30,702 bases of DNA, from the IMG/VR virus record IMGVR_UViG_3300025889_000609, positions 1 to 30,702 of that record. One strand, written 5' to 3'. The translations under genes and the position numbers were made by a program. The DNA is from a virus. Lineage: Duplodnaviria; Caudoviricetes. Of the stretch, positions 3,049 through 18,314 are shown piece by piece. Every line of letters starts with the position of its first letter. Position 1 is the first letter of the stretch. Under the pieces are notes generated by a model, which saw only the letters and a program-made list of their open reading frames with translations, had not been told where the DNA came from and made no database searches.

Positions 3049-3923
3049 TGGGTGCGGCTGCTGGACCTAAAACACCATATACACTAATGAGAGACGGTAC
3101 TGCTGGATTCTTCTTAAATCCAAATGTGTTATCTTCGCTTTTTGCTGATACTGCTGGAACAACACCAGCTACAGTTGACGGTGAAGTAAAAAGAATGAAC
3201 GATTTAGGTCCATTAGGTCTTGCATTTGTAGCACCAACAGGCTCGCAAGTTTCAGGTGGAGTAACATATACTTTTCATGGGCCAACTCTAAGAAAAAGTA
3301 ATGAGACATATTATTTAGAATTTGATGGAGAAGGTGCAGGATTACAATTATTAGATGCTGCTGGAAATTGGCCACAAGCAACAACTTCAGGTGGAAATGC
3401 AATGACATTAATGGTTGCATTTGAAACAAACAGTACTCAGACTATAGGATTTGGTGGTACTTGGTTAGGTACACATTCAATAGGTAATTATACTGGAAAA
3501 TGGAACTTCGGTTTTAGGTTGTCTACCGAAAATCAACATTATTGTGTGGTAAGAAACGATGCTAATGATGGATGGATTAATATATTTGATGAAGGTACTA
3601 GATATTCAACTTTAAATTCAAGTCAATATTATGACATTCCACTGATATATTGTGCTGAAGGAAATATTGGTAATTTAGTTATAGGTGGTAAAGATTATAT
3701 TAGAAGAGATTTTCAAACAGAATTTTCAAATGTAGCCGTAACAGATACTGAAAATGATTTACCAGTAGATTTTTACAATAATTTCGCTATTGGGGCAAGA
3801 GCACCAAACAACGATAATTGGATAGCTGGAAAATTTTTTGGTGGTATAATGATAGCTAAATCATTGTCAGATTCTGAAAGAAATTCTTCATATGATTATT
3901 TATATTCAAACATAAATAAATAA
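3048..3923 (+). CDS. Divergent lectin/beta-sandwich virion protein
   Basis: LFADTAGTTPATVDGEVKRMND, YLEFDG, and an IGAR...GKFFGGIMIAKSLSDSER..YDYL C-terminus resemble LamG-like phage tail proteins. TAATG overlap. Confidence 0.55.
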   Translation: MGAAAGPKTPYTLMRDGTAGFFLNPNVLSSLFADTAGTTPATVDGEVKRMNDLGPLGLAFVAPTGSQVSGGVTYTFHGPTLRKSNETYYLEFDGEGAGLQLLDAAGNWPQATTSGGNAMTLMVAFETNSTQTIGFGGTWLGTHSIGNYTGKWNFGFRLSTENQHYCVVRNDANDGWINIFDEGTRYSTLNSSQYYDIPLIYCAEGNIGNLVIGGKDYIRRDFQTEFSNVAVTDTENDLPVDFYNNFAIGARAPNNDNWIAGKFFGGIMIAKSLSDSERNSSYDYLYSNINK

Positions 3924-3944
3924 TAAACTAATCAGAGATAGTAA

Positions 3945-4919
3945 ATGGCACACTCAGAAAAAAATATCGTAATTACACCAAATATTGGTGCTAATGATGA
4001 TCCTAAGATTGTATTTACTGGTGCTGATGCGTCTACAAACGCACAGAATATCTCTGTATATGTATACCCAACTTCTAATGGAACTCTATCGTTTGAAGGT
4101 TCTTTTGGGCAGCTATTCTCTATCACAAACGATTTAACTGGAACTATCTTTTCAGTTAATGATATTTCTGGTATGCCTTCTATTGAAGTTTTCTCTAATG
4201 GTCGAATCGAACTAGCATCGATTTCTGGTAATGTATTTGCAGAAGGTGTTGAGGTTGTTTCGGAGATATCATTGGCTCATGCACAAGCCAATACTGGTGT
4301 AACAGATGCGGCAACGGCACAAGCACTAGGTCAAGCGGCATTTGGACAAGCCAATACTGCAACAAGTGATGCTGCTGGAGCATTATCAACTGCCGGTGCT
4401 GCCTTTGATGCAGCCAACACTTCTGGCGGTGCAGATACGACTGCCAGAACATGGGCAAACACTGCCAATCTGACTGCCAATAATAATCTTATCACAGTAG
4501 CATCAGCATATGGTGTCGCAAATAATGGTGTTTCTGATGCGGCTACCGCTCTTAGTGCTGCTGGTTCAGCACATGGAACTGCTAATAGTGCGGCCTCGGA
4601 AGCATCATTGGCTAGAGGATCAAGTAATACTAATGCTTCTGGCATTACCGCAACAGAGGCCGAAACTGTCCTTGCGAGAAATCAAGCGAATACTGGTGTT
4701 ACTAATGCAGCAACAGCACAAGCATTAGGTGTCTCAGCATTCGGTAAAGCAAATACTGCCTGCACGTCTGCCGATTCCGCTACAACAACCGCTGGAGCAG
4801 CATTTGAAAAGGCCAATTCAGCAACAATTACCGCAAGTGCGGCCTTTGATACAGCAAATTCTGCTGGTGGTGGTGGAACAGGAACTTCTATAGCCATGTC
4901 AATAATTTTTGGCTGGTAA
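3945..4919 (+). CDS. Fibre-like virion protein with Ala/Asn/Thr repeat stalk
   Basis: N-terminal KNIVITPN..DPKIVF..GTLSFEGSFGQLFSITNDLTGTIFSVNDISGMPSIEV domain seen in T4-like fibre proteins. Its stalk modules are shared with gene 3..1688. It ends SIAMSIIFGW. Confidence 0.7.
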   Translation: MAHSEKNIVITPNIGANDDPKIVFTGADASTNAQNISVYVYPTSNGTLSFEGSFGQLFSITNDLTGTIFSVNDISGMPSIEVFSNGRIELASISGNVFAEGVEVVSEISLAHAQANTGVTDAATAQALGQAAFGQANTATSDAAGALSTAGAAFDAANTSGGADTTARTWANTANLTANNNLITVASAYGVANNGVSDAATALSAAGSAHGTANSAASEASLARGSSNTNASGITATEAETVLARNQANTGVTNAATAQALGVSAFGKANTACTSADSATTTAGAAFEKANSATITASAAFDTANSAGGGGTGTSIAMSIIFGW

Positions 4920-4934
4920 GTGCAATGCGGATAA

Positions 4935-4942
4935 TATAAATA
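4935..4942 (+). promoter_or_regulatory. T4-type late promoter TATAAATA
   Basis: Exact consensus, intergenic, about 30 nt upstream of ATG 4973, with an AAGGA RBS between. Confidence 0.75.
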
Positions 4943-4972
4943 TAACACAAGATTTAAGGAACTGGTAAAATA

Positions 4973-5533
4973 ATGGCATTTGCAAACGTATCATTTTCGG
5001 ACACCTATGCTACATGGTTAATGCGAACCAATCAATTGGTTGTCGCATATAACTCTTTAGAATCAGCCAATGCAGCTACCGCAGAAGCATCAGCCGGTGC
5101 TGCATTCGGAAAGGCCAATACGGCCTGTACCCAATCAGATCAAGCCGGCACTAATGCCAATAATGCATATGGACAAGGTAATACAGCATATACTCACGCC
5201 AATAATGCCTATAATAGCGCAAATGCCGCCGTAATTGCGACTAATGCAGAAGTTGTTATTGCAAGAGATAGAGCCAATACTGGAGTTTCGGATGCAGCAA
5301 CAGCCCTTAGTGCGGCTGGTAGCGCACATGGTACTGCCAATACTGGTGTTAATAATGCAGCAACAGCACAAGCACTGGGCGTTTCGGCCTTTGGACAGGC
5401 CAATACAGCCTGTACCCAATCAGATCAGGCTGGAACCAATGCTAATACCGCATATGGACAAGCCAATAATGCGTATAATCAAGCCAATACTGCCAAAAGT
5501 TTTGCCATAAGTATGTCAGTTCTTTTTGGTTAG
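4973..5533 (+). CDS. Short fibre-like protein with Ala/Asn/Thr repeat stalk
   Basis: N-terminal NVSFSDTYATWLMRTNQL anchor-like motif, repeats shared with the other fibres, and C-terminal FAISMSVLFG. Confidence 0.7.
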   Translation: MAFANVSFSDTYATWLMRTNQLVVAYNSLESANAATAEASAGAAFGKANTACTQSDQAGTNANNAYGQGNTAYTHANNAYNSANAAVIATNAEVVIARDRANTGVSDAATALSAAGSAHGTANTGVNNAATAQALGVSAFGQANTACTQSDQAGTNANTAYGQANNAYNQANTAKSFAISMSVLFG

Positions 5534-5544
5534 AGAAAATGTAT

Positions 5545-5552
5545 TATAAATA
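5545..5552 (+). promoter_or_regulatory. T4-type late promoter TATAAATA
   Basis: Exact consensus, intergenic, upstream of the GAGGA RBS and ATG 5577. Confidence 0.75.
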
Positions 5553-5576
5553 AAATCATAGAATAGAGGAAGAGAA

Positions 5577-5936
5577 ATGGCAGCACCAAATATTGTAAAT
5601 GTGGCAACAATTAAAGGAAATACTGCGGTATTGGCCGTTACGACATCGCCCGCTAATATTGTATCCAATATAGCATCAAGCGGTAAGGTATATAAAATCA
5701 ATACACTGATTGTCGCAAACGTAGATGGAACTAATGCCGCGGATATAACAGGTTCGCTATATAGAGATGGTACCGAATGGAATTTTTCTAGTACAATTTC
5801 GGTGCCTGCGGATTCCGCAATAGTATTGATCGACAAAAGTTCGGCATTATATCTAGAAGAAGGTGATGCAATTCGACTAACAGCATCAGCGGATGATGAT
5901 CTCGAAGCAATTTGTTCTTATGAGGAGATTAGTTAA
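5577..5936 (+). CDS. Conserved small phage virion protein (fibre adaptor-like, beta-rich)
   Basis: MAAPNIVNVATIKG..KVYKINTLIVANVDGTNAADIT..YLEEGD..CSYEEIS is a widespread phage family that follows genes ending in an IAMxIxFG motif. Confidence 0.65.
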   Translation: MAAPNIVNVATIKGNTAVLAVTTSPANIVSNIASSGKVYKINTLIVANVDGTNAADITGSLYRDGTEWNFSSTISVPADSAIVLIDKSSALYLEEGDAIRLTASADDDLEAICSYEEIS

Positions 5937-6901
5937 TGTCACTTCCATATTGGAGTAACGGTGGAATAATAGGTCCAAACAATATACCCAGTCCTATTGT
6001 TGCGAGTGGTATGTGGAGATTTGCTACTATCTCGAATGCAGTCGCAAGCGATACATGGCCAAAGTATTATAATCCAACAATACCGACAGTTATTGATGAA
6101 ATGATTGCAAACTGGAGTGCAAATTCTTATGCATACAGAAACAATTTATGGAGCAAAAGTTCGGTAGCGGCTGGTCGAGAATCTTCTGCATCGGCAGCAG
6201 TGACAAGCACGTTGGGTGCCACATATTACACATCAACAAGCGTATCAGGAACTTTGGGCTTTTCAACACAAAATAACTATGATGCTGGTATGCGAGAAGG
6301 AAGACAAACAGATTGGTGCACCATATTCGCAAGAAATACTGGCCAATCTGCGGGAAATATTTCTTGTGAAGTGAATGGTGGTGCCGTAGCATCAGCAAAT
6401 TTGCTTATCTCAACAATCATGACTGCAGGTAGTACCGGTTCACCGATGGTAACTAGATATGAACTATATCAAACCAATAATAGTTTGGATTCAATATCAA
6501 CAATCTATACTGTAAATACTAAGATAAATGATAATTCGGATAATGCTCAAGATTTCTTTGTTCTTCCTGGAAGATGGAATGTAGGACAAGTTCAAACACA
6601 AGATTGGAATGCCTCGGCCGCGGCTACGCTCACTACAACATGTGCTGTGGATGATATCGTAATCGCATTTATGGCCGATGATAGTACAACAGCAACTTGG
6701 GGAACACAAGGAGGTACAGGCACATTTTCACTTCTTTTCGACAGAAATACTTATCAGAATAGCTGTTCATCACACTATAAAGTATATGTATGTACCGGTG
6801 CAGGAACATTTACCCATACCACAGCACTAGATTCTTTTTCAGTAGATACAGCATACTATAGACCAAAACAACTTATTAGACTGGAGGCAGTGAGTATCTA
6901 A
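5936..6901 (+). CDS. Putative fibre-tip / receptor-binding protein
   Basis: N-terminal NGGIIGPNN..ASGMW..TWP motif common in phage tail-associated proteins, followed by a Thr/Ser-rich beta region. TAATG coupling. Confidence 0.5.
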   Translation: MSLPYWSNGGIIGPNNIPSPIVASGMWRFATISNAVASDTWPKYYNPTIPTVIDEMIANWSANSYAYRNNLWSKSSVAAGRESSASAAVTSTLGATYYTSTSVSGTLGFSTQNNYDAGMREGRQTDWCTIFARNTGQSAGNISCEVNGGAVASANLLISTIMTAGSTGSPMVTRYELYQTNNSLDSISTIYTVNTKINDNSDNAQDFFVLPGRWNVGQVQTQDWNASAAATLTTTCAVDDIVIAFMADDSTTATWGTQGGTGTFSLLFDRNTYQNSCSSHYKVYVCTGAGTFTHTTALDSFSVDTAYYRPKQLIRLEAVSI

Positions 6902-7512
6902 TGGCATTATATACAAAGGATGGAAATTTCCCCCAACCTATACCACTCAGAATAATTCTTTCAAATGGTAGAACAAGAACTGATCCAAGCACATTTACCG
7001 CCGAAGAAATTGCTGATGCGGGATTTGTTGAAGTGGCTGATGAACCAGTTTATGATCCTTTAACACAAAAATTGGAATGGAATAATCAAACATTAAATTG
7101 GTCTATTATCAATAAAACACAATCAGAATTAACAACGGACCTTCGTCAACAAAAAGATAAAGCAAAGGAAGAAATTCTTGCAGCAAGAAGTATAAAACTT
7201 AAATTACCATTTTATGCTAATGATGTAGGTGGTCTGGTTTCTAGGGATACCGAAGATATGGTTTTCACATTAACCAATATCATAACATCTATGCTTGCGA
7301 CACGCGAGGGATCACCAATAAATGTACCCATTATTGATGTAAATGATAGGGTCGTTCTCTTGAATGATCAGGCTATTACGAATGTGACGACACAACTCTT
7401 CCAGGCTAATCGGTCAGATTTTTTTGAATATAGAGACGTTATATCCAATCTAAGGAATGCAAATACTGCCGTTGAGATTTCTAATATTGTATCAAATTAC
7501 ATTACGGGGTGA
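6901..7512 (+). CDS. Tail fibre assembly chaperone-like protein
   Basis: PLRIILSNGRTRTDPSTFTAEEIADAGF..P.YDPLTQKLEW motif typical of phage fibre assembly proteins, and position after a fibre-tip gene. Confidence 0.55.
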   Translation: MALYTKDGNFPQPIPLRIILSNGRTRTDPSTFTAEEIADAGFVEVADEPVYDPLTQKLEWNNQTLNWSIINKTQSELTTDLRQQKDKAKEEILAARSIKLKLPFYANDVGGLVSRDTEDMVFTLTNIITSMLATREGSPINVPIIDVNDRVVLLNDQAITNVTTQLFQANRSDFFEYRDVISNLRNANTAVEISNIVSNYITG

Positions 7513-7518
7513 TAAAAA

Positions 7519-7965
7519 ATGGAAAATGCGCGAGTTGCTTTAGAGAGTGATGGACAATTTAGATATGAATTGGCTGATTTTGAAATTTTGGATGATGTAT
7601 TTCATAGCATTCAATTCACGATCAATAAATATCCATGCGGCCCAAGAGGCGAAAAAATTACTGATAAACTTTGGTCATCAGTAACACATCAAATCAGATC
7701 CTGTGAAATAACAGATAATGGTTGGATATATGAAGATGGTGAGAGATTTAATGATCCTCTTATAAAACAAGTAATACAAAAAGCCATTGATCAATATTGG
7801 ACGGAAGATATAATTGAAGAAGTGAAACTTGAAATTGAACGGCAATATGTCGAAAAATATATGCAGTTCAATGCTGGTGAAGGCGCAGTTTCACTTGAGG
7901 AAATCAACTCAATATTGGAAAATATGGGATTGGATGATGAAATTACAGAAGATACCGCCAAATAA
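7519..7965 (+). CDS. Hypothetical acidic protein (possibly fibre-associated)
   Basis: Clean 148-aa ORF in an operon context; no confidently recognised motif. Confidence 0.55.
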   Translation: MENARVALESDGQFRYELADFEILDDVFHSIQFTINKYPCGPRGEKITDKLWSSVTHQIRSCEITDNGWIYEDGERFNDPLIKQVIQKAIDQYWTEDIIEEVKLEIERQYVEKYMQFNAGEGAVSLEEINSILENMGLDDEITEDTAK

Positions 7966-8485
7966 GGAAGTAGTTCGATTTATTGAATATTACATTCGAC
8001 AATCCGCAGAACTTTTACTAACTCTTAAATCGGGCAAAACAACCGAAAACGATTTTAACAATCAGTCTTTTCCAGATCATGATATTCAATCTGGATATTT
8101 TCTCAATAATGTTCCTGTGGTTCAACTTAAGGTATTCAACAAGAAACTTTTTCTTGAGAATTCCGCCAAAATGTTGAAAATAGATAATGATACTTTCAAA
8201 AAACATTTCATAGATTCTAGCACGAATAATCTGGTATATAATCCTATGTCCTGCATGGGGTGGCATACCAATTCGAATCATGTCGGCCTAAGAACTTACT
8301 ATACTTATACTAAGGGCAAAGCAATTTTTCGTTATATTGACGAAAACGGAAAGATCCAAGACGACTATGACGATCCTGGAAAATGGGTTGTTCGACAATT
8401 TCAAATAGATGATAAGGATAAACTTTGGCATACAATTTGGACAGAAAAATTAAGATTCTCTTTTGGATTTGTGTTTGATGATTAA
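7934..8485 (+). CDS. 2OG-Fe(II) oxygenase-like protein
   Basis: MGWHTNS (HxN variant of HxD), distal LWHT and terminal RFSFGF fit a double-stranded beta-helix fold. Start moved from 7829 to the in-frame ATG at 7934/7937. Confidence 0.6.
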   Translation: MMKLQKIPPNKEVVRFIEYYIRQSAELLLTLKSGKTTENDFNNQSFPDHDIQSGYFLNNVPVVQLKVFNKKLFLENSAKMLKIDNDTFKKHFIDSSTNNLVYNPMSCMGWHTNSNHVGLRTYYTYTKGKAIFRYIDENGKIQDDYDDPGKWVVRQFQIDDKDKLWHTIWTEKLRFSFGFVFDD

Positions 8486-9539
8486 AAAAGAAGTGAGTTT
8501 TCTCAAAGAAATGGATCCAAGAGTTCTGGATCAATGGTATCTGTGGGCAAAAATAAGATTGGATAAGCCCAAGAAACTGGCCAATCTACCACATCTTATC
8601 AAGTTTCATGAATCCCTAAAGAAAATATCACAAAAACAGAAAGTATATTTCTTGTTTGCCGACCTTATTAAAGCAAAATTCCTCAATAATACTTTGATGT
8701 ATAGGGGAGGCAGTCCTAATTATACACACTTCAAAATAACACCTGGTGGTGAATATATTCTATACAATCCAAAGTATCATCTATGGAGAAATCAGGATAT
8801 AGATCATGATATCATGAAGAAATATTCATCATTCAAGAACAATCGATATGCACAGCCAGATAAAACAATAGAACTGCCGGAACACTACAATCTATTTGCA
8901 CTACAACTAACCTCACGAAAGTTTGGTGCCTATGATCTGCCTCTAGGTAAAATGGAAATAGAAAAAGATGATCCTAGATATAGTCCAAACGGCACATTCT
9001 TTGGTGAATTGGGATTGAAAGGTATAGAATTGACGGAGGACGAAATTATGCCCAGAGATGAATGGGCAACTCGCGATGCTATTCGACATGCAAAAGAAAC
9101 TAAGACATACACAATATTTAAAGCACATCCGGTAGCATCTAGTCCAAATACAAAGACATGGGACAACTTCATCAAAGAAGGCATTCTAAACGAATACTGC
9201 ATCTTTGTTGATGGACATGAATGTAACGTGGATTATCTAATAGAAAATGCCGATCTTGTCTATAGTTCGGATAGCGCAGTTTCATTTACAGCAATGCTAA
9301 AAGGTAAACCGACAGCGACATACTATAACACAGACATGTCAGAAATTATACCAACCATCACAACTTCTGATGATTTGGTTAATATCAAAGCAATTCCGGA
9401 AGAAGATGTAAAGAGATTTCTTTCATGGTACTATCATAAACTATGTATTGATATTGAGCAAGATGATTATGAGGATAAGATAGAAAAAATGGTCATTCGA
9501 TTTAAGAATGGCGAAAGAACAAAGGAACTATTTTCTTGA
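8478..9539 (+). CDS. KpsS/KpsC-like (capsule polysaccharide synthesis, GT-B) glycosyltransferase, paralogue 1
   Basis: LFALQ, IFKAHP and YLIENADLVYSSDSAVSFTAMLKGKPTATY match the Capsule_synth-like C-terminal Rossmann domain. Start is ATG 8478 or 8511. Confidence 0.65.
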   Translation: MIKKEVSFLKEMDPRVLDQWYLWAKIRLDKPKKLANLPHLIKFHESLKKISQKQKVYFLFADLIKAKFLNNTLMYRGGSPNYTHFKITPGGEYILYNPKYHLWRNQDIDHDIMKKYSSFKNNRYAQPDKTIELPEHYNLFALQLTSRKFGAYDLPLGKMEIEKDDPRYSPNGTFFGELGLKGIELTEDEIMPRDEWATRDAIRHAKETKTYTIFKAHPVASSPNTKTWDNFIKEGILNEYCIFVDGHECNVDYLIENADLVYSSDSAVSFTAMLKGKPTATYYNTDMSEIIPTITTSDDLVNIKAIPEEDVKRFLSWYYHKLCIDIEQDDYEDKIEKMVIRFKNGERTKELFS

Positions 9540-10582
9540 TTAATGCAGTAATTCCTTCGCTAGATGATAATCTTGCGAGAATCTATAAGTCTATAAACAG
9601 GGATCGTGGACCACTTAAACAAGCAAAAATTAACAACATAAAACATGTCGATCACTTCCATAATCTTCTAAAACCGATACTCGAAAAGCATCCTGTCGAT
9701 ATACTTCTAGCAGATCATCATAAAGAGAAATATCTACCTGATGTTCTATTCTATAGAGGCGGAAGTCCGATATATTCGTTATTTGTGATATCACCCGGAG
9801 GTGAATATATCAATTACAATCCTTTTTATCATCTATGGAAGAATCAGAAGATTGATGATGATATTCTTGAGAAGTTGTCCAAATATGATTATAATAGATA
9901 TACACAGCCGGATAATGTAGATAAATTACCAGAAGAATATGATCTATTTCCATTGGGTCTCTCTAATCATATCTTTGGATTTAATGATCATCCGTCGCAG
10001 ATAAAAATATCTACGGATGACCCACGATATTGCTGTAACAAACAAATGTCTCTTCTAGGACAAGGATCGATCAAAGCGAGTTGGAGAAAGAATGTTCAGC
10101 CTAGGGATGAATGGGCCACACTTGATGCCATGAAATATGCTACCGAGAATAAGAAATTGACACTATTCAAAAATCCACATGCCCAAGGAGATAGAGTTAG
10201 GAATTGGAATGATTTGGAAAGAGACGGTTTTGTGAGTCGATATACGAGGTACGTTGAAGGAAATATTGATAAAATGATTGATGGTGCTAATAGAGTATAT
10301 AGTTCGGATAGTATGGCAACTTTTCAGGCAATGCTAAAAGGAAAACCTACAGCATCATATTATAATCTAATGATTTCAGAAGTTACTCCAGTCATAACTA
10401 CTGCAAAAGATATGGAAAATGTCAGACCAGTTCCTCATAAAGATATGCTGCGATTTCTTTCGTGGTTCTATCATAAACTATCGATTGATATATATACTAA
10501 TGATGCTCAGGATAAATTGGAAGAATTGATTGTTCAATTCAAGAAAGGTAAAAGAACAAAGGAATTATTTAATGGATCCTAA
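9536..10582 (+). CDS. KpsS/KpsC-like glycosyltransferase, paralogue 2
   Basis: Collinear with paralogue 1 (YRGGSP, PGGEYI.YNP.YHLW, PRDEWAT.DA, ANRVYSSDSMATFQAMLKGKPTA, FLSWFYHKL, RTKELF). TTG start overlaps the upstream TGA. Confidence 0.62.
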   Translation: MINAVIPSLDDNLARIYKSINRDRGPLKQAKINNIKHVDHFHNLLKPILEKHPVDILLADHHKEKYLPDVLFYRGGSPIYSLFVISPGGEYINYNPFYHLWKNQKIDDDILEKLSKYDYNRYTQPDNVDKLPEEYDLFPLGLSNHIFGFNDHPSQIKISTDDPRYCCNKQMSLLGQGSIKASWRKNVQPRDEWATLDAMKYATENKKLTLFKNPHAQGDRVRNWNDLERDGFVSRYTRYVEGNIDKMIDGANRVYSSDSMATFQAMLKGKPTASYYNLMISEVTPVITTAKDMENVRPVPHKDMLRFLSWFYHKLSIDIYTNDAQDKLEELIVQFKKGKRTKELFNGS

Positions 10583-11504
10583 AATTCTTGATGATTATTT
10601 AAATCAACTGAAAATGAAAATTATTAAAAATGGTGGAATATTCCAACAAAAAAAATTAGATAATCTAAAACATCTTCAATATTTCCATAACATGATAAAG
10701 GATTATGATGTAAATGCTATATTAGCAGCAAGTGTGAAAAACACATTATTGGCCGATGATAATATCACATATGACAACACTCTATTTTATGAGCCTGGTA
10801 CACCAAATATTCAACTATTCAAGTTTAGTCCTGGTGGGGATTATATCTTTAAGAATCCTCGATATCATCTATGGAAAGAGTGTGATATTGATTATGACAT
10901 CCTAAAAAAGTTCGATAAATTGCCTAATAATAGATACACGCAAACTCAAAGAACTATACCTGTACCGGATAGTTATGATCTTTTTCCACTCGCTCTTTCA
11001 GCAAAAAAGAAGAATGAGTTTGGTATACCTAAAGATGAAGTAGTAACTCGCGATGCTATCAGATATGCAACCGAGAAAAAAAGATATACGATATTCAAAG
11101 AATCCCATCTAGCAGTCAAGGGCAAAACATGGCATGACTTTGTAAAAGAAGGTATAACCAGCAAATATACAATATATGCCGAAGATTGTAACGGAGATTA
11201 TCTGATAGATAATGCAGATAGAGTCTATAGTTCGGAAAGTGCTATGTGTTTTCAGGCAATGCTCAAAGGTAAGATTGTAGCAACATATCATGACACGGAT
11301 TCATCAGAAGTGATGCCAATTATCAAAACCGCATCAGAAATTGATGATATTGAACCTTTGCCTATAGGTAAACTATATCGTTATTTGTCGTGGTACTATC
11401 ATAAACTATGTATAAATATATATGATGAGAATGCTGAGGAACGAATAAATGATCGTATATCTCGGTTTATAAATGGTGAAAGAACAAAGGAATTATTCAA
11501 ATGA
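10572..11504 (+). CDS. KpsS/KpsC-like glycosyltransferase, paralogue 3
   Basis: Same motifs (PGGDYI..NPRYHLW, ADRVYSSESAMCFQAMLKGK, LSWYYHKL, RTKELF). The likely start is ATG 10572 (MDPKILD, cf. MDPRVLD in paralogue 1). Confidence 0.62.
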   Translation: MDPKILDDYLNQLKMKIIKNGGIFQQKKLDNLKHLQYFHNMIKDYDVNAILAASVKNTLLADDNITYDNTLFYEPGTPNIQLFKFSPGGDYIFKNPRYHLWKECDIDYDILKKFDKLPNNRYTQTQRTIPVPDSYDLFPLALSAKKKNEFGIPKDEVVTRDAIRYATEKKRYTIFKESHLAVKGKTWHDFVKEGITSKYTIYAEDCNGDYLIDNADRVYSSESAMCFQAMLKGKIVATYHDTDSSEVMPIIKTASEIDDIEPLPIGKLYRYLSWYYHKLCINIYDENAEERINDRISRFINGERTKELFK

Positions 11505-12139
11505 ACATAAATATGATTCCATGGCCACATCTAGAAATTGATGATTTCTATAATCCCACTCTATTCTCAGAAATGCGAAAAGAGGTGGCTTTACACTGTA
11601 AACAATTGCCCCTTAAAGACCCTAAATTTCGAACAAAAATGACATCGAAAGCAAAAGGTATACCTGGTAAAAAAAGATTGAACGGACAAGGATTTAAATA
11701 TGAAGTCAATATTTCGAATTCAGAAGAAGATGCGTTTCCAGCAGTAAAGAAGTGTCTTGCGGAGAGACCTATTGATGAAAGTTGGATTAAGATGTTTCCA
11801 GCTTATCGGGAATACGGAGAACTTGTATTGCTATCGGAACTAAATATTCTCATGGATGAATTAAACTATCCTATTCATGATGAAAATCCTAGTAAGATTT
11901 TATCAGTGGTAACATATCTAATACCAGAAACTGGTCGAGGTACAGTTCTCTACGATAAAGATCAAAACTATGTGAAGGAATTGGAATGGAAACCTAATCG
12001 CACATTCATCTTTCCGGCTATTACTGGTGTGACATGGCATAGTTATAATTCACCAAAGGGCACATATAGAATTACACTAAATCAGTTTCTTATCGATAAA
12101 GAAAAGAATACTGTATTTATGGCAAACAAAGGAAAATAA
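11501..12139 (+). CDS. 2OG-Fe(II) oxygenase superfamily protein
   Basis: PWPHLEIDDF start, YPIHDE..KILSVVTYL, GTVLY, WKPNRTFIF, TWHSY and RITLN give the His/acid...His...Arg pattern. Confidence 0.75.
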   Translation: MNINMIPWPHLEIDDFYNPTLFSEMRKEVALHCKQLPLKDPKFRTKMTSKAKGIPGKKRLNGQGFKYEVNISNSEEDAFPAVKKCLAERPIDESWIKMFPAYREYGELVLLSELNILMDELNYPIHDENPSKILSVVTYLIPETGRGTVLYDKDQNYVKELEWKPNRTFIFPAITGVTWHSYNSPKGTYRITLNQFLIDKEKNTVFMANKGK

Positions 12140-13045
12140 ATGATACGTCTAAAAAGATTGAATTTTACCCTGATTCATTCATCTATGGGTGTTCTCGTTA
12201 ATAATATAGAAACATTTTTAATATTCAATGCAGTAAGATCAGAGGATATTGTTTATCCAATATATCTTTCTCATAGAATAGGATCTCAACGTGCCGAATA
12301 TAATTCGAAAATTATGAACAAGATCACAAATAATCAAACAGCCAATAATATTCGGAATTTCATATATGGTGGTAAGAAAGATAATGTGACGAATGGTCAA
12401 AAACAGACTATTCTAAGTCAATTAACTTCCAATCCGAAATACTCGACACAAGAAGAAGTTAATGCTGCATTCGATGAAATGGTAGGCAGCAAATATACAC
12501 AAAATTTTCCAGAAACATATCTTACTGGTGAAGATGGTTCTGGCATATTCTCAGCACAAAGATTGATCGATGAAGGTATATCCGATGCTGGAGATAGATT
12601 TGTTTCGGTCATAATGAATCCTCTTGAAAGATTTATTATCATTTTTATGAACGAGAATAATTGGGGCAAAACCGGTGAGACAGTCAATAGAACTGCCTTC
12701 AGGAACTGGATTAGTAGTGGTGAACACCAAAATCTCTCACCACAAAAATCAGGAAAACAATACAATCTTCTTGACTACAACGGAACTACTGGTGAATGGT
12801 GGTGTGCCGATCATATAAAAGATCATTTGAAACAGGATTTCATAGAATATTATGATATATCAACAACAGACATGGTATCATGGGAAACTATTATGAAGCA
12901 TAATAGAAAAAAGATTCTCTTTGCATCGGAAAATTTGGATTATCATAATCTATCCACCCAAAATGCATTACAGGCACAATATCCCGAAGACTTCGATCTC
13001 TATGATTCGATAAAAACTGCCACAGACACTAGATTTGGTACATAA
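12140..13045 (+). CDS. Degenerate sulfotransferase-fold protein
   Basis: Retains FVSVIMNPLERF and C-terminal YPEDFDLYD like its neighbours, but lacks the 5'-PSB PK(T/N)A motif. Confidence 0.5.
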   Translation: MIRLKRLNFTLIHSSMGVLVNNIETFLIFNAVRSEDIVYPIYLSHRIGSQRAEYNSKIMNKITNNQTANNIRNFIYGGKKDNVTNGQKQTILSQLTSNPKYSTQEEVNAAFDEMVGSKYTQNFPETYLTGEDGSGIFSAQRLIDEGISDAGDRFVSVIMNPLERFIIIFMNENNWGKTGETVNRTAFRNWISSGEHQNLSPQKSGKQYNLLDYNGTTGEWWCADHIKDHLKQDFIEYYDISTTDMVSWETIMKHNRKKILFASENLDYHNLSTQNALQAQYPEDFDLYDSIKTATDTRFGT

Positions 13046-13752
13046 TGATTTATATAAAAAGTTTGGGTATACCGATAGTCTTCATTGGTGTACCAAAAAC
13101 GGCGAGTGAGGCAACCGCCAAATTCTTTATTGATAATGTTCTAGTATCAGGTGATATGGCATCGCGACTCCTTGAGAGGGATATAAACAAAGTCAAGAAT
13201 GATCAAATCGATTATGCCAAAGATTTTCCTTTTGATGGTAAAAATCCAAATTGCCATACTTCTGCATCCGAAGCAATAGAATCTGGTATAGTTGATCCTA
13301 AATCCGAATTTATTGGAGTAATTCGTGATCCCATCGAAAAGCAACTCAGCCTATATCTATCTAAAACGAGAAAGATGAATAGAACTTCTCCATTAAAACA
13401 ACCAAGAGATCCACTTTTCAAATTAGGAATTCAAGATTTCCGTGATAGGGTAAAAAATAATTCATGGGAAGGTGTGACCGAATATCAACTCCGATCACAA
13501 AAATCATTCCTTGAGGGGGCCAAGTGGAAAATTTGGTGGTGTTATGATCATCTAGAAGACCGTCTAAATGATTTTCTAGATAAGTATCAAATAGAACTTA
13601 AAGTTCCTTTCGAGAAATTGAATAGAAGCGTTGAAAACAGTTCGGCCAAAGATTTCATAGACAAGTTCTATGATGAAGAAACCTTAAGCATAGTTCGGGC
13701 GCGACATAAGGAAGATATTGAACTTTATGAAAGGGTGAAATATGGAACTTAA
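13045..13752 (+). CDS. Sulfotransferase (Sulfotransfer_2-like)
   Basis: 5'-PSB motif FIGVPKTASEA, 3'-PB motif VIRDPIEKQLSLY, and C-terminal YDEETLSIV...EDIELY. Confidence 0.75.
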   Translation: MIYIKSLGIPIVFIGVPKTASEATAKFFIDNVLVSGDMASRLLERDINKVKNDQIDYAKDFPFDGKNPNCHTSASEAIESGIVDPKSEFIGVIRDPIEKQLSLYLSKTRKMNRTSPLKQPRDPLFKLGIQDFRDRVKNNSWEGVTEYQLRSQKSFLEGAKWKIWWCYDHLEDRLNDFLDKYQIELKVPFEKLNRSVENSSAKDFIDKFYDEETLSIVRARHKEDIELYERVKYGT

Positions 13753-14416
13753 TGGTATAATATTTCCTGATGAAGTTGATGGTATTGTTACTAAGAACAG
13801 TGTTGATAAAGATTATGAAAATGGATTTTCTAAAGCAATTTCCAAATATGTTCTGCAAGATGACATTGTACTTGAATTGGGAACAGGATTAGGATTTACT
13901 TCTGCGCTTGCAGCCAAGAAAGCGAAGCATGTCGTTACCCTTGATCCGAATCCCCTTTCAGTAAACTACATAAAGAAATTATATGAGATAAATCATATAG
14001 AAAACATTTCCTTCATTAATAAAGCGGTTTCAGCATTCCCGACAGAAGAACAAATTACTTTTTGGGTTCATTCAGAAGGACCAAATTGCAAATCTTTCGG
14101 GACTGCTTCATCCCTTATCCAAGGAAGAAAGTCTTATGATAAACACATTCTTGTCGATGCTATTTGTATAGATAATCTCTTAGAAAAATACAAACCAACT
14201 GTTATGATAGTGGATGTTGAGCGTTATGAGTATGAACTATGTAAAAATCCTGGTTGGACTAAAGGAGTCCAAGTAGTAATGGTAGAAATGCATGAAATTA
14301 AAGGATTGAATAAAGAGGTCACGCATATCAACCAAGCAAAACTTAAATTCAATTTAAAATCTAATGGGTTTAGATTGAGTAATAGCAGATCGAAACTCAT
14401 AGGCACAAAGAGATGA
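13742..14416 (+). CDS. FkbM-family class I SAM-dependent methyltransferase
   Basis: VLELGTGLGFTS motif I, LDPNP, FINKAVS, VMIVDVERYE and VEMH. Confidence 0.8.
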   Translation: MELNGIIFPDEVDGIVTKNSVDKDYENGFSKAISKYVLQDDIVLELGTGLGFTSALAAKKAKHVVTLDPNPLSVNYIKKLYEINHIENISFINKAVSAFPTEEQITFWVHSEGPNCKSFGTASSLIQGRKSYDKHILVDAICIDNLLEKYKPTVMIVDVERYEYELCKNPGWTKGVQVVMVEMHEIKGLNKEVTHINQAKLKFNLKSNGFRLSNSRSKLIGTKR

Positions 14417-15024
14417 TATATATAAAACGGCACAATATTTGTTTTATAACTACAAGCAAAAATGCGAGCATATCAATAAAAAAATTCTTTAGGGATAATG
14501 TTGTTCAGCCTGATGATGTGGTCAATAAAATAAATCGGATAATAATTGCTATAGAAAATGGTGTGCCCAAAGATGCTAAATTTTTTGGTATTATAAGAAA
14601 TCCTTATGAACGATTTCTCAGTTCATATTTCTACATATCCCGAAAATATCCAGAACTAGGATTTACTGGTACGTGCGCGGATTTTGAAAATCAACTGAAA
14701 ATGTCAATATATAATTGCAATGGAAATGGAAATCTCCATAAGAACGGCCAAAGTAAAATGTTTGATTGTAAAGAAGACATCGAAAAAGAGATATGGTGTT
14801 TTGATTTCCTAAAAGATCATATCAATTCTTTCATCAATGAATATAAAATTGAGATTGTTTTTCCTCTAGAACATAGAAATAAAACATCTTTAAGCACAAA
14901 GAATTTGATAGATACATATTATAATGAGGAAACTAAAAATATGGTCTATGAAAGATATCAAAGAGATTTTGAACTATATGATGAGGTAAAAGAAAAATGG
15001 TCCCGGATTTACAACGCGCAGTAA
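14413..15024 (+). CDS. Sulfotransferase (Sulfotransfer_2-like)
   Basis: FITTSKNASISI, IIRNPYERFLSSYFY and YYNEETKNMVYERYQRDFELY. Confidence 0.75.
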   Translation: MIYIKRHNICFITTSKNASISIKKFFRDNVVQPDDVVNKINRIIIAIENGVPKDAKFFGIIRNPYERFLSSYFYISRKYPELGFTGTCADFENQLKMSIYNCNGNGNLHKNGQSKMFDCKEDIEKEIWCFDFLKDHINSFINEYKIEIVFPLEHRNKTSLSTKNLIDTYYNEETKNMVYERYQRDFELYDEVKEKWSRIYNAQ

Positions 15025-15950
15025 TAGAAGTCTTTGGAGGATGTAACTATACTTGTGCCATGTGTCCTCAGACAAATCCCGGTAGAGGTAAAGAATGGAC
15101 TCGCAAGATGCCTCTACCTCTATTCGAGGAAATATTGGATCAACTTCCGGGTAAACCAATAGTCAATCTGGAAGGTTCTGGTGAGCCAACAATGGCAAAA
15201 GACCTACCGAAGTATATTCAGGCCTGCACAGATCGCGGACTGAAAAGTTATATCTACACAAATGGATTTAGACTCAAAGACCAATTCATGCGCGATTGTG
15301 TGAATGCAGGTCTTTCCTATGCCAGATTCTCCGTTATTGGATATGATCCCGTAACATACAAGAAATGGATGGATTCCGACAACTTTGATGCGGTCATGGA
15401 AAACATTGCGGCCATTCAAGCATATGGTGGTACTGAAATCAGCACATATCATCTCATTCTGGACGAACACGACATACCGGTCGAGATCCAAAAGTATCGG
15501 GAGAATGTGATTGATCGACATAACACAATCGGCTACATCTGGAAGATGCATAACTGGAGTGGTAACTATGAGCCGGGTTATGAGAGAAAGATTGATAAAA
15601 GACGATCATGTGGTCGGCCATTCTCACCGGAGATTGTGGTTCGGGCAGGTGGTAATGACGGCCATCGAGCCGCAGTAACACCATGCTGCCAGACACTCGG
15701 ACCACCAAACGAGTCCAAGAGCGTTCTGGGACATCTGGATCATCAATCTCTTGAAGAAGTCTGGAATGGTGAACTTTATGAAGACTTACGCAAAGCCCAT
15801 AGAGAAAAAGACTTTGATCGAATCGATTATTGCAAGGATTGTGATTTCCTCCTTCATGACGGAGATGCTCTTGTGTGGACGAATGATCCGAAAGCAGAAT
15901 TGGAACATATGCTAGGAACGTCATTTTCACTAAAGGAATATATACCATGA
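14997..15950 (+). CDS. Radical SAM protein with SPASM/twitch domain
   Basis: CNYTCAMC (CxxxCxxC), GSGEP, YTNG, and C-terminal C..PCC..LGHL..SLEEVWNG..CKDC. Confidence 0.9.
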   Translation: MVPDLQRAVIEVFGGCNYTCAMCPQTNPGRGKEWTRKMPLPLFEEILDQLPGKPIVNLEGSGEPTMAKDLPKYIQACTDRGLKSYIYTNGFRLKDQFMRDCVNAGLSYARFSVIGYDPVTYKKWMDSDNFDAVMENIAAIQAYGGTEISTYHLILDEHDIPVEIQKYRENVIDRHNTIGYIWKMHNWSGNYEPGYERKIDKRRSCGRPFSPEIVVRAGGNDGHRAAVTPCCQTLGPPNESKSVLGHLDHQSLEEVWNGELYEDLRKAHREKDFDRIDYCKDCDFLLHDGDALVWTNDPKAELEHMLGTSFSLKEYIP

Positions 15951-15962
15951 GTTGCCTGATCG

Positions 15963-15970
15963 TATAAATA
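15963..15970 (+). promoter_or_regulatory. T4-type late promoter TATAAATA
   Basis: Exact consensus, intergenic, upstream of the gp13 ATG at 16001. Confidence 0.8.
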
Positions 15971-16000
15971 GTATGAATCAATACAAGGTAACCCAAACAT

Positions 16001-16744
16001 ATGTCAGTTCCAGCTTCCAGAGCAAATCTAATCGATTGGTGCAAGAGACAACTCGGTCATCCTGTCATTGAAATTAATGTGGATGATGATCAGGTCGAAG
16101 ACCGGATTGATGAAGCATTCCAATATTTCCGAGATTTCCACTATGATGGTGTTGAAAGATGGTATACGGCCCATCAAATCACTTCAACGGATGTTACCAA
16201 CAAGTACCTTACAATTTCAGATAATATCATAGGCATTACTCGAATCTTTCCATTAGGTTCGACCAATGCATCAGTCAACATGTTCGATCTTCGATATCAA
16301 CTCCGGCTTCATGAACTATATGACTTCACCTCAACATCCTATGTCAGTTATGTCCTTACACAACAGCATATCCGAACACTCGATTTGCTATTCTCGGGTG
16401 AACAGCCCATTCGATATAATCGACATACCAATAAACTCTATATCGATTGGGATTGGGGTAGCGATATTCAGGTAGGTGAATATGTGATTTGTGAGGGATA
16501 TATCGTAATCGATCCCGACACATATACGGATGTCTATAATGATCGAATGCTAAAGTCTTTAGCCACAGCATATATCAAGAGACAATGGGGCAACAACCTC
16601 AAGAAATTTCAGGGTATGCAGTTACCTGGTGGTATCCAAATGAATGGTCAACAGATATTCGAGGAAGCACAAGCAGAAATAACTCAACTGGAAAAGGATA
16701 TTCGGGAACAATATGAAGAACCGCCTGGTTTTCTTGTGGGCTAG
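16001..16744 (+). CDS. gp13: Neck protein gp13
   Basis: LGHPVIEINVDDDQVEDRIDEA..FHYDG, KRQWGNNLKKFQGMQLPGGIQMNG, and its synteny. Confidence 0.93.
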   Translation: MSVPASRANLIDWCKRQLGHPVIEINVDDDQVEDRIDEAFQYFRDFHYDGVERWYTAHQITSTDVTNKYLTISDNIIGITRIFPLGSTNASVNMFDLRYQLRLHELYDFTSTSYVSYVLTQQHIRTLDLLFSGEQPIRYNRHTNKLYIDWDWGSDIQVGEYVICEGYIVIDPDTYTDVYNDRMLKSLATAYIKRQWGNNLKKFQGMQLPGGIQMNGQQIFEEAQAEITQLEKDIREQYEEPPGFLVG

Positions 16745-16779
16745 ATTCATGAAACAATTCTTATAAAGGTAAATGAAAT

Positions 16780-17430
16780 ATGCTAACATTCAAACAATTC
16801 ATGGTACAAGAAGGTTTTTGGGATAAGGCTAAAGCGGCTGTATCGAGTGCCGCTGGCGCTGCCGCTGGTGTAGTGAGATCATTACAAGGTAATACACCTC
16901 CAAGAACAGTTCCTCAATCCACAGAATCGAAACCCCAAAAAGTAGCAAATCCTATGAGTTATAATGATGCGTTAGCAGCCAAAAAACGAAGTTTGGCCAT
17001 TGATAGTAATATCAGGAATGTCACATCTCGGGCTACACCGAGTGGTTCTAACAAAGTTGATCCGGCAGCTTTACCATCCGCATTAGCGGCTGCAGCCAAG
17101 AGAAGGGGCGAAGAAATGAAAGCCAATGCTCTACCCGCTAAGAAAACTGCGGGTGATGAAGGTTTTAAAACAGCATCATTACAGAATGCGGCACATAAAA
17201 TCAAGTTACAAACAGCAAAAACGGCGGCTGATTTGGCTAAGAGAATGCCAGTGCCGAGACCTAATCCCATTGCTCCAAAAACAACATCCAGTGATTATAC
17301 TATTAAGAGTGGCGACACATTATCATCTTTAGCTAAAGCTCACGGCACTACAGTTGCGGATTTACAGAGAATTAATAATATTAAAAATCCTAATAAGATT
17401 CGGGCTGGCGCGCAATTGAGATTCAAATAA
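16780..17430 (+). CDS. LysM-domain protein with capsid-targeting-like N-terminus
   Basis: C-terminal YTIKSGDTLSSLAKAHGTTVADLQRINNIKNPNKIRAGAQL is a canonical LysM. N-terminus MLTFKQFMVQE; basic low-complexity middle. Confidence 0.85.
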   Translation: MLTFKQFMVQEGFWDKAKAAVSSAAGAAAGVVRSLQGNTPPRTVPQSTESKPQKVANPMSYNDALAAKKRSLAIDSNIRNVTSRATPSGSNKVDPAALPSALAAAAKRRGEEMKANALPAKKTAGDEGFKTASLQNAAHKIKLQTAKTAADLAKRMPVPRPNPIAPKTTSSDYTIKSGDTLSSLAKAHGTTVADLQRINNIKNPNKIRAGAQLRFK

Positions 17431-18314
17431 TGGCAGTGAATCATTATTTCCACAATTTTTCCCCCGCCGTAATCAATGAACAGCGAGTTCTTGAGGATCT
17501 CATTGGTGAGTCCGTGCAGATATACGGTCATGCATGTCAGTATATGCCTCGGGAAACATATGATGCAATTGATCTTCTATATGGTGAAGATCCGGTATCA
17601 AAGTTCACTCGCGCATATACGATGGAAATGTTTATTGCGAACGTCGAGGGCTTCGAGGGCGACGGCGATTTCTTCTCCAAGTTTGGTATGGAAATTCGGG
17701 ACACATCAAATTTCGTAGTCCCTCGCCGTGCATTTGAGAAATATACTCCCGGATCCGTGCGGACACGACCGCGAGAGGGCGATCTGGTGTATGTTCCCGT
17801 CATGAGGAAAATATTCGAAATCAAGTTTGTGGAAGAAGAACTTCTATTCTTCTCACTAGGTAAGCGCGAACCTTACATGTATGAAATGCGATGTGAAGTG
17901 TTCCGGTACAGCCAAGAGAACTTTAGCACAGGAATTGGAGATGTGGATAGAATTGAGGACAGAGTGGCATATACAATAGAACTTACATTAGGATCAGGTT
18001 CAGGAAACTATACTATTGGCGAAACAGTATATCAGGGCGTCGATCTATCTTCTGCCACAGTTTCGGCCAAGGTAAAGGACTGGGATATCACAACCGGCAT
18101 CATGGAAGTAATCAACATCAAGGGATCATTCACAGATGCTGGCACACTTGTTGGCGCGACATCCAATACTCAATATAATCTGACAAGTAGTGAAGGTCAA
18201 GATGAATACAGCGACCATGATATATTCGATAACAAACTCCTACAGACAGAGGCAGATGAGTTTATCCAAACAACCGAGACTAATCCTTTAGGTGTCTCAT
18301 ATAATGATAGGTAA
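17430..18314 (+). CDS. gp14: Neck protein gp14
   Basis: EQRVLEDLIGESVQIYG, FFSKFGMEIRD, RPREGDLVY and FEIKFVE. Confidence 0.92.
   Translation: MAVNHYFHNFSPAVINEQRVLEDLIGESVQIYGHACQYMPRETYDAIDLLYGEDPVSKFTRAYTMEMFIANVEGFEGDGDFFSKFGMEIRDTSNFVVPRRAFEKYTPGSVRTRPREGDLVYVPVMRKIFEIKFVEEELLFFSLGKREPYMYEMRCEVFRYSQENFSTGIGDVDRIEDRVAYTIELTLGSGSGNYTIGETVYQGVDLSSATVSAKVKDWDITTGIMEVINIKGSFTDAGTLVGATSNTQYNLTSSEGQDEYSDHDIFDNKLLQTEADEFIQTTETNPLGVSYNDR

Follow-up and report, generated by a model that had tools for sequence, protein, structure and literature searches.

An enzyme cassette built on an oxygenase-like protein (c1) and a glycosyltransferase (GT) accompanies the genes for the fibre tip in phages that are not related to one another. 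We favour the reading that it attaches a CMP-ulosonate sugar to the fibre tip of the phage itself, perhaps at a hydroxylated aspartate, and that a small open reading frame (ORF) recruits the enzymes. The ten-gene block described here, an expanded form and the largest version of the cassette that we found, lies in the window, a 30,702-nucleotide stretch of DNA from an aquatic, T4-like phage.

The initial annotation had described ten contiguous, mostly overlapping or abutting enzyme genes in the late structural region, and the ORF coordinates confirm this arrangement: all ten run in the + direction, each abutting or overlapping the next, with genes of fibre type on their left and the neck gene gp13 (16001; phrog_211) on their right. 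The unit that contains them reaches further upstream, and the whole gene chain (5577-15950) stands behind a copy of TATAAATA, the T4-type late-promoter motif. The proposed late-operon placement is supported. A further copy of TATAAATA occurs inside GT3, at 11411, and the number of copies by itself does not exceed chance expectation (10 of 100 shuffles). No terminator-like site was found on the + strand in 5545-15950, scans for sigma-70 promoters and terminators found no more sites than in shuffled sequence, and a tRNA search returned none. Three other DNA runs cover 28 to 30 of the 30 bins of 3900-17500; single contigs from other runs bridge 6042-8002 and 15363-16386, and none spans the entire stretch. 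An RNA run (X6) yielded no contigs for it. Half of the variant places in 5936-16744 (11/22) fall inside ST1.

Table 1. Features of the gene chain and its boundaries in the window.
Feature	Position	Strand	Basis or detail
T4-type late-promoter motif TATAAATA	5545..5552	+	25 bp ahead of chain 5577-15950
119-aa protein, first gene of chain, candidate fibre-tip adaptor	5577..5936	+	position
321-aa Ser/Thr-rich protein, candidate adhesin and substrate	5936..6901	+	homologues, composition
203-aa protein, candidate tail-fibre assembly chaperone	6901..7512	+	DUF4376, phrog_28130
148-aa small ORF, predicted adaptor	7519..7965	+	acidic amphipathic C-terminal helix
c1, putative core oxygenase, DSBH/2OG-Fe(II) fold	7934..8485	+	H111-x-N113, H166, R174-x-S176
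GT1, KpsC/WbbB-like GT-B	8478..9539	+	Q143, D194, K215-x-H217-P218
GT2, paralogue	9536..10582	+	Gly replaces conserved Gln; K-N-P-H replaces KxHP
GT3, paralogue	10572..11504	+	Ala replaces conserved Gln; K-E-S-H replaces KxHP
c3, oxygenase, 2OG-Fe(II) family	11501..12139	+	H126-x-E128, H180; PF13640
ST1, sulfotransferase homologue without 5'-PSB motif	12140..13045	+	BLAST
ST2, Sulfotransfer_2, both PAPS-binding motifs	13045..13752	+	Pfam above cut-off
FkbM-family methyltransferase	13742..14416	+	TIGR01444/PF05050
ST3, Sulfotransfer_2, both PAPS motifs	14413..15024	+	Pfam above cut-off
Radical SAM/SPASM enzyme	14997..15950	+	Radical_SAM and SPASM domains
TATAAATA ahead of gp13, right-hand boundary of chain	15963..15970	+	motif scan

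Among 67 distinct c1 loci, 44 have a GT within three genes, directly adjoining c1 in 40 of them. These cassettes, found on T4-like, podovirus-like and other phage backbones, share a conserved core of c1 and one GT; the usual companions are another oxygenase (c3, in 32/44 loci) and a radical SAM enzyme. Sulfation is an accessory to the cassette (a sulfotransferase in 9/44), and the triple GT occurs solely in this phage. Given this composition, to speak of a sulfation island whose three GTs are all active would be an overstatement. The link with fibre genes, which the initial annotation had proposed to test in related phages, extends to other phages: a fibre- or adhesin-type gene of one of four tip types lies upstream in 41/41 untruncated loci, and in every one of these a small ORF sits behind the tip gene and ahead of the cassette. 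All four YR-type fibres tested match PHROG tail-fibre families. A single GT clade (18 rows, 100/99) has members on T4-like (L056), podovirus-like and third backbones, with YR tips in 16 of its 17 untruncated rows; loci L013, L018, L062 and L064 are exceptions to the match between GT and tip. In one podovirus-like clade, loci with a complete fibre and other tips have a GT in the next five ORFs in 0/62 cases, many cassette-free loci having less than 2 kb of sequence behind the fibre. A scan for the YR tip, which is circular, gave 14 loci, 13 on known contigs and one an identical tip on a truncated contig; the same kind of scan with the window's tip protein found no relative, and isolate phages held no homologues of YR or RIS tips.

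The 321-aa protein, likely the fibre-tip adhesin and a candidate substrate, consists of 24% Ser and Thr; PHROG and Atlas comparisons gave it no named family, the Atlas matches being unnamed viral clusters only, and its homologues stand ahead of the cassette in loci L001, L002 and L018. The 119-aa protein has no Pfam or PHROG match, and its position makes it a likely fibre-tip adaptor; a 53% identical homologue in L018 precedes another tip-like gene. The 203-aa protein, with a weak DUF4376 match (E 0.08), is likely a tail-fibre assembly chaperone.

Two features recur in the cassette loci, both in patterns defined post hoc, after the positives had been inspected. One is an acidic amphipathic helix at the C-terminus of the small ORF (residues 125-136, nt 7891-7926 in the window), present in 25/43 cassette small ORFs versus 6/397 controls and in none of 44 small ORFs behind cassette-free fibres. 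The tendency is common to nine unrelated small-ORF families; with a protein's own family left out, 31/43 rank in the top 5% and 12/43 are missed. The other is an Asp in the terminal hairpin of the tip (Asp304, nt 6845-6847, in the 321-aa protein). Hairpin-type tips carry it in 32/32 cases from 14 clusters (rough null 2e-4), compared with 1/7 related tips in the cassette-free set; the same 32 hairpins also hold Thr (32/32), Tyr (31) and Ser (29). For the window-type tip, Asp is present in 3/3 loci with c1 and absent in L018, which is without c1. Gly-rich adhesins give a weak Asp signal, with 15/32 controls also positive and the rule parsing 4/8 positives, and for these adhesins we dropped an Asp at the apex as a universal rule.

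GT1, GT2 and GT3 are mutually 47-51% identical, in keeping with their initial description as KpsS/KpsC-like GT-B paralogues. GT1 (E 0.0055) and GT3 (E 0.0018) match Capsule_synth (PF05159) under the cut-off and GT2 has no match to it in the Pfam search; nine of 13 homologues match, the best at 2e-8, and GT2 has orthologues in L001 and L014. In a GT1 model (pLDDT 85) the top Foldseek rows are WbbB/KpsC (E 3e-6). Superposed on KpsC (VIA), the model gives Z 13.0 and rmsd 3.9 over 241 residues, while other GT-B enzymes reach Z 12.4 over about 150; as modelled, GT1 shares the reduced GT-B fold of KpsC/WbbB. A sequence search of the PDB with 27 sequences also found WbbB/KpsC, at E 0.03-0.08. The CMP-binding motif of retaining ulosonate transferases, (K/R)xHP (PMC12887879), is intact in GT1 and broken in GT2 and GT3. 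The KpsS/KpsC-like fold suggested at the outset is supported, and two copies lack canonical donor motifs. Across 44 cassette GTs the motif's His and Pro are conserved in 40 and 38, a Gln in 38 and an Asp in 35; this Gln aligns with that of QxxxD, the motif of the nucleophilic Asp, in Capsule_synth proteins. The spacing differs: Q-x3-D occurs in 0/44 and Q-x5-D in 26/44, or the distance is longer, as in GT1 (50 residues).

KpsC (GT107), WbbB (GT99), KrkA (GT140) and KpsS1 (GT118) have the reduced GT-B fold, (K/R)xHP, Gln and Asp in common with the phage GTs, at 11-14% identity between the phage GTs and these retaining beta-Kdo/Pse transferases. By fold and motifs the phage GTs are predicted to belong with the CMP-ulosonate transferases; because of the Gln-Asp spacing we describe them as working like GT107/GT99 and not as filed members. 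They are a family of their own, which counts about 100 clusters at 50% identity and is set off from Capsule_synth proteins by a gap in scores, and are known from phage contigs, with no homologue in isolate phages or in a GTDB pattern scan. Unlike in KpsC-type enzymes, the acceptor is likely a protein and not a glycolipid. Two cassettes (L032/L035) contain a CTP_transf_3 gene (CMP-sugar synthetase). The sole PDB match of the three window GTs, rotavirus NSP2, was weak and was discarded as spurious.

Of the two 2OG-Fe(II) oxygenase-like genes annotated, c3 is supported by 2OG-FeII_Oxy_3 (PF13640, E 6e-4, under the gathering score) and by H126-D-E128 and H180, which fit HxD/E...H, the iron triad of the family. 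For c1, which has no Pfam match, the support is a modelled DSBH fold. In structure it comes closest to protein prolyl hydroxylases (Z 10.3, rmsd 3.6, 145 aligned); AspH scores Z 8.6, AlkB-type nucleic-acid enzymes come within 1 Z unit of the best match, and the first Foldseek row is thymine-7-hydroxylase (E 3e-4). Here c1 departs from the triad: H111-T-N113 and H166 are invariant in 17/17 sequences, with Asn instead of the carboxylate, and RxS is also present. We regard c1 as a variant 2OG oxygenase, putatively active. It has two weak matches in isolate phages, and profiles of c1 and c3 against the PDB gave nothing useful.

The remaining enzymes would tailor the product. ST2 and ST3 have 5'-PSB and 3'-PB, the PAPS-binding motifs of Sulfotransfer_2, ST3 with Ser instead of Pro in the first. 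ST1, the third gene annotated as sulfotransferase-fold, is a homologue by BLAST (E 2e-12) with no Pfam match, no 5'-PSB Lys and Met instead of Arg in the 3' motif; it is likely inactive or repurposed. Non-canonical motifs in GT2, GT3 and ST1 led us to drop a scheme in which every GT and every sulfotransferase of the block is active. The methyltransferase passes the FkbM cut-offs (TIGR01444, 54 bits, and PF05050) and the last gene has both CxxxCxxC and the SPASM domain, so both annotations hold; the closest solved relatives of the latter are BtrN, then tetraether synthase, BlsE and DesII.

The gene content, folds, motifs, linkage and co-segregation with tip type are observed; in the mechanism that we propose from them, tip, chaperones and enzymes would be co-produced from the late promoter at 5545, and the small ORF would bind the folding tip, its acidic helix recruiting the enzymes. 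By a KpsC-type retaining mechanism, GT1 would transfer an ulosonic acid in CMP-activated form, such as Kdo or pseudaminic acid, that comes mostly from the host. The acceptor in the terminal hairpin would be either a Ser/Thr close to the Asp or the Asp itself, pre-hydroxylated by c1; the latter carries about half the weight of this reading. The sugar could then be tailored by c3, the radical SAM enzyme, FkbM and ST2/ST3, a set that varies between phages, the probable purpose being to tune or shield receptor binding during late infection. A virion glycan, built and then decorated, had been suggested at the outset; a virion over a DNA substrate is retained, but it is the fibre tip, and not the particle in general, that the evidence singles out, and hydroxylation may precede the sugar.

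The main rival is that the enzymes modify LPS or capsule from the cytoplasm, masking the host receptor for superinfection exclusion or to protect progeny from debris, and, sharing with the tip a specificity for one receptor, would move together with it. Co-segregation with tip type and fibre linkage are expected equally under this account, KpsS/KpsC use cytoplasmic glycolipid acceptors (PMC10148158), and the closest solved relatives of the radical SAM enzyme act on sugars. We nonetheless consider it unlikely: it leaves the convergent helix in nine small-ORF families and the tip Asp unexplained, a late-operon position allows little time for surface remodelling, and the block contains no predicted membrane segments and no membrane or export genes. 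Cyanophage and jumbo-phage clusters (Iyer 2021, PMC7824862; S-SCSM2R, PMC12801897), in T4-like phages that are likewise aquatic, also combine paralogous GTs with O-methyltransferases and 2OG oxygenases. They are read as acting on host surfaces or metabolites, the former as host polysaccharide diversification, which favours the rival; the passages searched mention no sulfotransferase or fibre linkage, and the present cassette is compact, with a fixed place behind tip and small ORF.

A general virion coat, with many Ser/Thr-rich shaft or capsid/tail proteins glycosylated and the fibre linkage reflecting a recombination hot spot under late control, would accord with the Ala/Thr/Asn-rich fibre shafts upstream of the block, and the extra GT copies could lengthen a chain. 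Mycobacteriophages offer a parallel, their own glycosyltransferases reportedly modifying structural proteins at capsid and tail-tube C-termini (Freeman et al. 2023, as cited in PMC12619734 and PMC12582341), whereas the genes here indicate a CMP-ulosonate-type GT in company with oxygenases, a radical SAM enzyme and sulfotransferases, and a link to the fibre tip. The fixed place directly behind tip and small ORF and the absence of the cassette where members of one clade carry other tips make such a coat quite improbable. Very improbable, in our view, is DNA hypermodification or synthesis of a free glycoside. Hydroxylation followed by glycosylation is the logic of phage base modification, and the thymine-7-hydroxylase and AlkB matches of c1 agree with it; yet in the loci examined the cassette is always amid fibre genes and never among replication genes, its GT groups with CMP-ulosonate transferases, and its presence tracks tip type, not backbone.

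Predictions of host range start from the sequence of phage receptor-binding proteins, which are taken to be polypeptides without modification. If a mobile cassette edits the tip chemically, the adsorption of aquatic phages would have a hidden layer, and some of the genes for oxygenases, sulfotransferases and radical SAM enzymes that are often classed as auxiliary metabolic genes would acquire a function; the GT family would add to the retaining ulosonate transferases a new branch, whose acceptor may be a protein. A bolder version, which we find rather doubtful, is that chaperones of separate origin have arrived convergently at a single acidic docking helix, by which the H-x-N oxygenase and the GT resembling KpsC are recruited, the apical hairpin Asp being hydroxylated, ulosonate-capped and then oxidised, methylated or sulfated, as a widespread plug-and-play tip maturation. 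Host range would then be partly a matter of the enzyme set, and maturation would be RiPP-like with the leader in trans. With substrate, residue and adaptor named, the fibre-tip hypothesis can be put to the test in E. coli, with no need for a culture of the phage.

The literature searched, which lay outside subscription journals and was queried in part with strict terms, yielded no description of this cassette or of such virion modification. Hydroxylate-then-glycosylate modification of proteins has a model in collagen lysyl hydroxylase and its GT, alongside prolyl and Asp/Asn hydroxylases. The modelled likeness of c1 to prolyl hydroxylases and AspH is in line with this, whereas its H-x-N in place of H-x-D/E, the proposed hairpin Asp and an ulosonate sugar would set it apart. 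One of the loci, L013, carries a PLOD-type GT and 2OG fusion beside a collagen-like fibre.

The window proved to be a 30.7-kb part of the late region of a T4-like myovirus, in which neck, terminase, sheath, tube and portal genes were recognised through PHROGs. Its sheath is closest (52-56%) to those of Stenotrophomonas phage DLP_6 and of Pelagibacter and Methylophilales phages, and the metagenomes carrying the sequence are freshwater and marine. The block of ten enzyme genes described in the initial annotation is real and lies where it was placed, within a single gene chain. The block region was recovered in three other DNA runs, with 28-30 of 30 bins covered and contigs bridging both block ends, and a hydrophobic segment long enough to cross a membrane was seen in none of the 14 proteins of genes 5577 to 14997 (maximum KD19 1.45). 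Six matches to TATAAATA, the T4 late-promoter consensus, occur in the window, no more than chance would give (10 of 100 shuffles); three of the five plus-strand matches precede a start codon by no more than about 40 bp and fall in the intergenic 2% of the window. GC3 is low in the fibre and cassette genes (0.14-0.30) and is 0.30-0.42 from gp13 onward. Within the cassette, the radical SAM gene stands apart by its backbone-like composition; it is also absent from the cassette of another locus, L001, suggesting that it was acquired separately. Among the fibre-shaft genes, joints skipping 306 and 828 bp in other runs are possibly repeat-number variants or assembly effects.

Features of the window and of compared loci (prefix L)
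Position	Strand	Feature	Remark
3-1688, 3945-4919, 4973-5533	+	three fibre-shaft genes	common Ala/Asn/Thr-rich coiled-coil repeats
1688-2368, 2365-3048	+	tandem Laminin_G_3 lectin-fold genes	37% identical; pair also in L002, 3-4 kb from cassette
5545, 11411, 15963	+	TATAAATA sites	before chain; inside GT3; before gp13
5577-15950		gene chain	unbroken; gaps at most 6 bp
5936-6901		tip	candidate substrate
7519-7965		small ORF	predicted adaptor; acidic helix at residues 125-136
7934-15950		ten-gene enzyme block
7934 (start)		c1	putative oxygenase
8478, 9536, 10572 (starts)		GT1, GT2, GT3	KpsC-like glycosyltransferase genes
11501 (start)		c3	putative oxygenase
12140, 13045, 14413 (starts)		ST1, ST2, ST3	sulfotransferase-fold genes
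13742 (start)		FkbM
14997-15950		radical SAM/SPASM	GC 0.44, GC3 0.40
16780-17430	+	LysM-domain protein	Ala/Lys/Pro-rich N-terminus; inserted between gp13 and gp14 neck genes
16780, 19764, 20245, 26478, 27503, 29260 (starts)		small genes amid core structural genes	similar 'M-L/K-S/T-F/Y/L' N-terminus
26478-27302	+	274-aa protein	3' of portal
L013:9030-10841		603-aa fusion	GT25, PLOD-type GT and 2OG oxygenase domains; beside collagen-like fibre
L032:10523-13316; L035		cassette with additions	aminotransferase, second-type radical SAM, CMP-sugar synthetase, methyltransferase
L056:5721; L057:6622		cassettes of T4-like phages	same place as in window, directly before gp13
L068:7417-9150		three tandem c1 paralogues	no GT; behind Gly-rich adhesin and small ORF
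L189:5773-6276		c1 alone	phage-like contig of Celeribacter MAG

Three of the genes had been read as KpsS/KpsC-like paralogues, and the fold held for GT1, whose model (pLDDT 85) has WbbB, KpsC and KrkA as top structural matches and aligns with KpsC over 241 residues (Z 13). GT2 and GT3 are non-canonical, since in both the Gln is gone and the HP is no longer intact, which leaves GT1, with D194 as putative nucleophile, as the sole canonical copy. On the GT tree GT2 and GT3 derive from duplications within one clade, and since orthologues of GT2 occur in L001 and L014, this copy may have taken on another role instead of being inactive. A GT profile searched against 1.84 billion representatives found 83 proteins below 1e-30; the next tier consisted of Capsule_synth proteins, 20 of 20 tested passing the PF05159 cut-off. 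In the literature, the KpsC-type class is set by QXXXD and (K/R)xHP, and one member is a pseudaminic-acid transferase (PMC12887879, PMC10148158). Among 44 phage GTs the Gln is conserved in 38, the Asp in 35, the His in 40 and the Pro in 38, but the Gln-Asp spacing differs, with Q-x5-D in 26 and Q-x3-D in none of the 44. The phage enzyme would thus resemble KpsC in its mode of action while standing outside the filed class, and its predicted donor is a CMP-ulosonate.

The structural model of c1 has a DSBH fold. Among solved structures it comes nearest to prolyl hydroxylases (Z 10.3-9.2); AlkB enzymes score within 1 unit of these, effectively a tie, and AspH reaches 8.6. Its Foldseek list is headed by thymine-7-hydroxylase, and in the Atlas it falls in unnamed viral clusters, with an Asp/Asn-hydroxylase lead under the Atlas bar. 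Because its triad is H-x-N...H in 17 of 17 (N113 in the window), c1 is treated as a putative oxygenase; the triad of c3 is H-x-E...H. As for the three genes annotated as sulfotransferase-fold, both PAPS motifs are intact in ST2 and ST3 but not in ST1. ST1 also holds 11 of the 22 variant places of 5936-16744 (6 non-synonymous), mostly one allele common to two runs. The best PDB matches of the radical SAM protein are BtrN (E 2e-9), a tetraether synthase, BlsE and DesII, three of which act on sugars or aminocyclitols.

Scans with GT and c1 alignments, one limited to its best 80 of 135, yielded at least 67 distinct c1 loci, at least 44 of them with a GT within three genes. Counted among the 44 are the window, one relative at 90% identity and four loci whose GTs are short and score weakly; most of the 23 c1 loci lacking a GT carry distant c1 homologues. 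The GT immediately follows c1 in 40 of the 44, and, some loci being truncated, it is a single copy in 41, accompanied by c3 in 32, a radical SAM gene in 28 and a sulfotransferase in 9. The window is the most expanded cassette among them. Accessory genes include FkbM, GT8, GT25, an aminotransferase, a CMP-sugar synthetase (L032 and L035, whose gene content indicates that they may make their own donor) and a PLOD-type GT-oxygenase fusion (L013). The GT was found neither in 50,697 isolate phages nor in a GTDB pattern scan. That scan returned c1 once, on the phage-like contig of a Celeribacter MAG (L189), where it follows a tail-tip gene of 1189 aa and a short ORF; this points weakly to hosts among the Alphaproteobacteria.

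The initial annotation had proposed checking whether the cluster stays next to fibre genes, and it does: the order fibre/adhesin, small ORF, cassette recurs in 41 of 41 untruncated loci, four with one extra gene inserted. By our own sequence patterns, the tips comprise 23 YR, 8 RIS, 7 Gly-rich and 3 window-type. All four YR fibres tested match PHROG tail-fibre families; RIS, Gly-rich and window-type tips had no named PHROG family match, so theirs is a putative fibre role. As a control we took 80 loci that have their fibre adaptor in common with the RIS group, leaving 62 once 12 truncated and 6 unrecognised fibres were dropped. A GT occurred within the next five ORFs in none of the 62, many of which have less than 2 kb of room; their tips are other than the cassette-linked ones, and three have a distant c1 alone. 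On the GT tree, where backbones carry our own marker labels and long branches meet in parts, a clade of 18 (100/99) has members on three backbones, and 16 of its 17 untruncated rows carry YR tips; T4-like backbones are spread over three GT clades. The cassettes of L056 and L057 differ in both tip type and GT clade. This GT-tip match, broken by L013, L018, L062 and L064, is a description rather than an independent-pairs test.

Two features are convergent. The small ORFs fall into nine BLAST families once their last 30 residues are removed, and 25 of 43 end in an acidic amphipathic helix, a pattern picked after the data were seen, versus 6 of 397 control ORFs. With their own family held out of the scoring, 31 of 43 rank in the top 5%. 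Of the small ORFs that follow cassette-free fibres, many of them holin-like, 0 of 44 have the helix. It also accompanies c1 alone (L034) or a GT alone (L018, L021). At the tip, an Asp lies in the terminal hairpin of 32 of 32 YR/RIS tips (14 clusters; rough null 2e-4), where a Thr is equally universal, and in 1 of 7 RIS tips of the control set, the genes behind those seven not having been checked singly. Window-type tips have the Asp (Asp304 in the window) in three loci with c1 and lack it in L018, itself without c1; among Gly-rich adhesins the Asp is a weak signal, seen in 4 of 4 that could be parsed and in 15 of 32 controls.

Folds, motifs, gene order and linkage were seen directly, and from them we infer the remaining steps. 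The cassette probably places an ulosonate on the phage's own fibre tip: tip, small ORF and enzymes would be co-expressed late, the small ORF would recruit the enzymes, the sugar would be transferred to the tip hairpin, onto hydroxy-Asp or Ser/Thr, and the variable enzymes would tailor it. The full version, with hydroxy-Asp and a predicted docking helix, is a tentative proposal, less likely than not. Masking of the host receptor by the same enzymes would account for the linkage and the GT ancestry, and agrees with the reading of cyanophage clusters as host polysaccharide diversification in Iyer 2021 (PMC7824862); masking gives no account of the helix or the Asp, and we consider it unlikely. The fixed cassette position is a poor fit to a general virion coat, which is improbable, and to DNA or small-molecule chemistry, the least probable reading of all.

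Virion glycosylation is known in mycobacteriophages (Freeman 2023, as cited in PMC12619734 and PMC12582341) and GT-rich clusters in cyanophages (PMC12801897). The cassette is real, and the part of the open literature that was searched gave no account of one that pairs a KpsC-like GT with an oxygenase and is linked to fibre tips.

Beyond the cassette, the similar N-termini of the small genes inserted among the structural genes are possibly a shared head-targeting signal, by analogy with T4-like phages. By eye, the C-terminal half of the 274-aa protein resembles an ADP-ribosyltransferase-like domain, with an R..STT..E.E-type motif.
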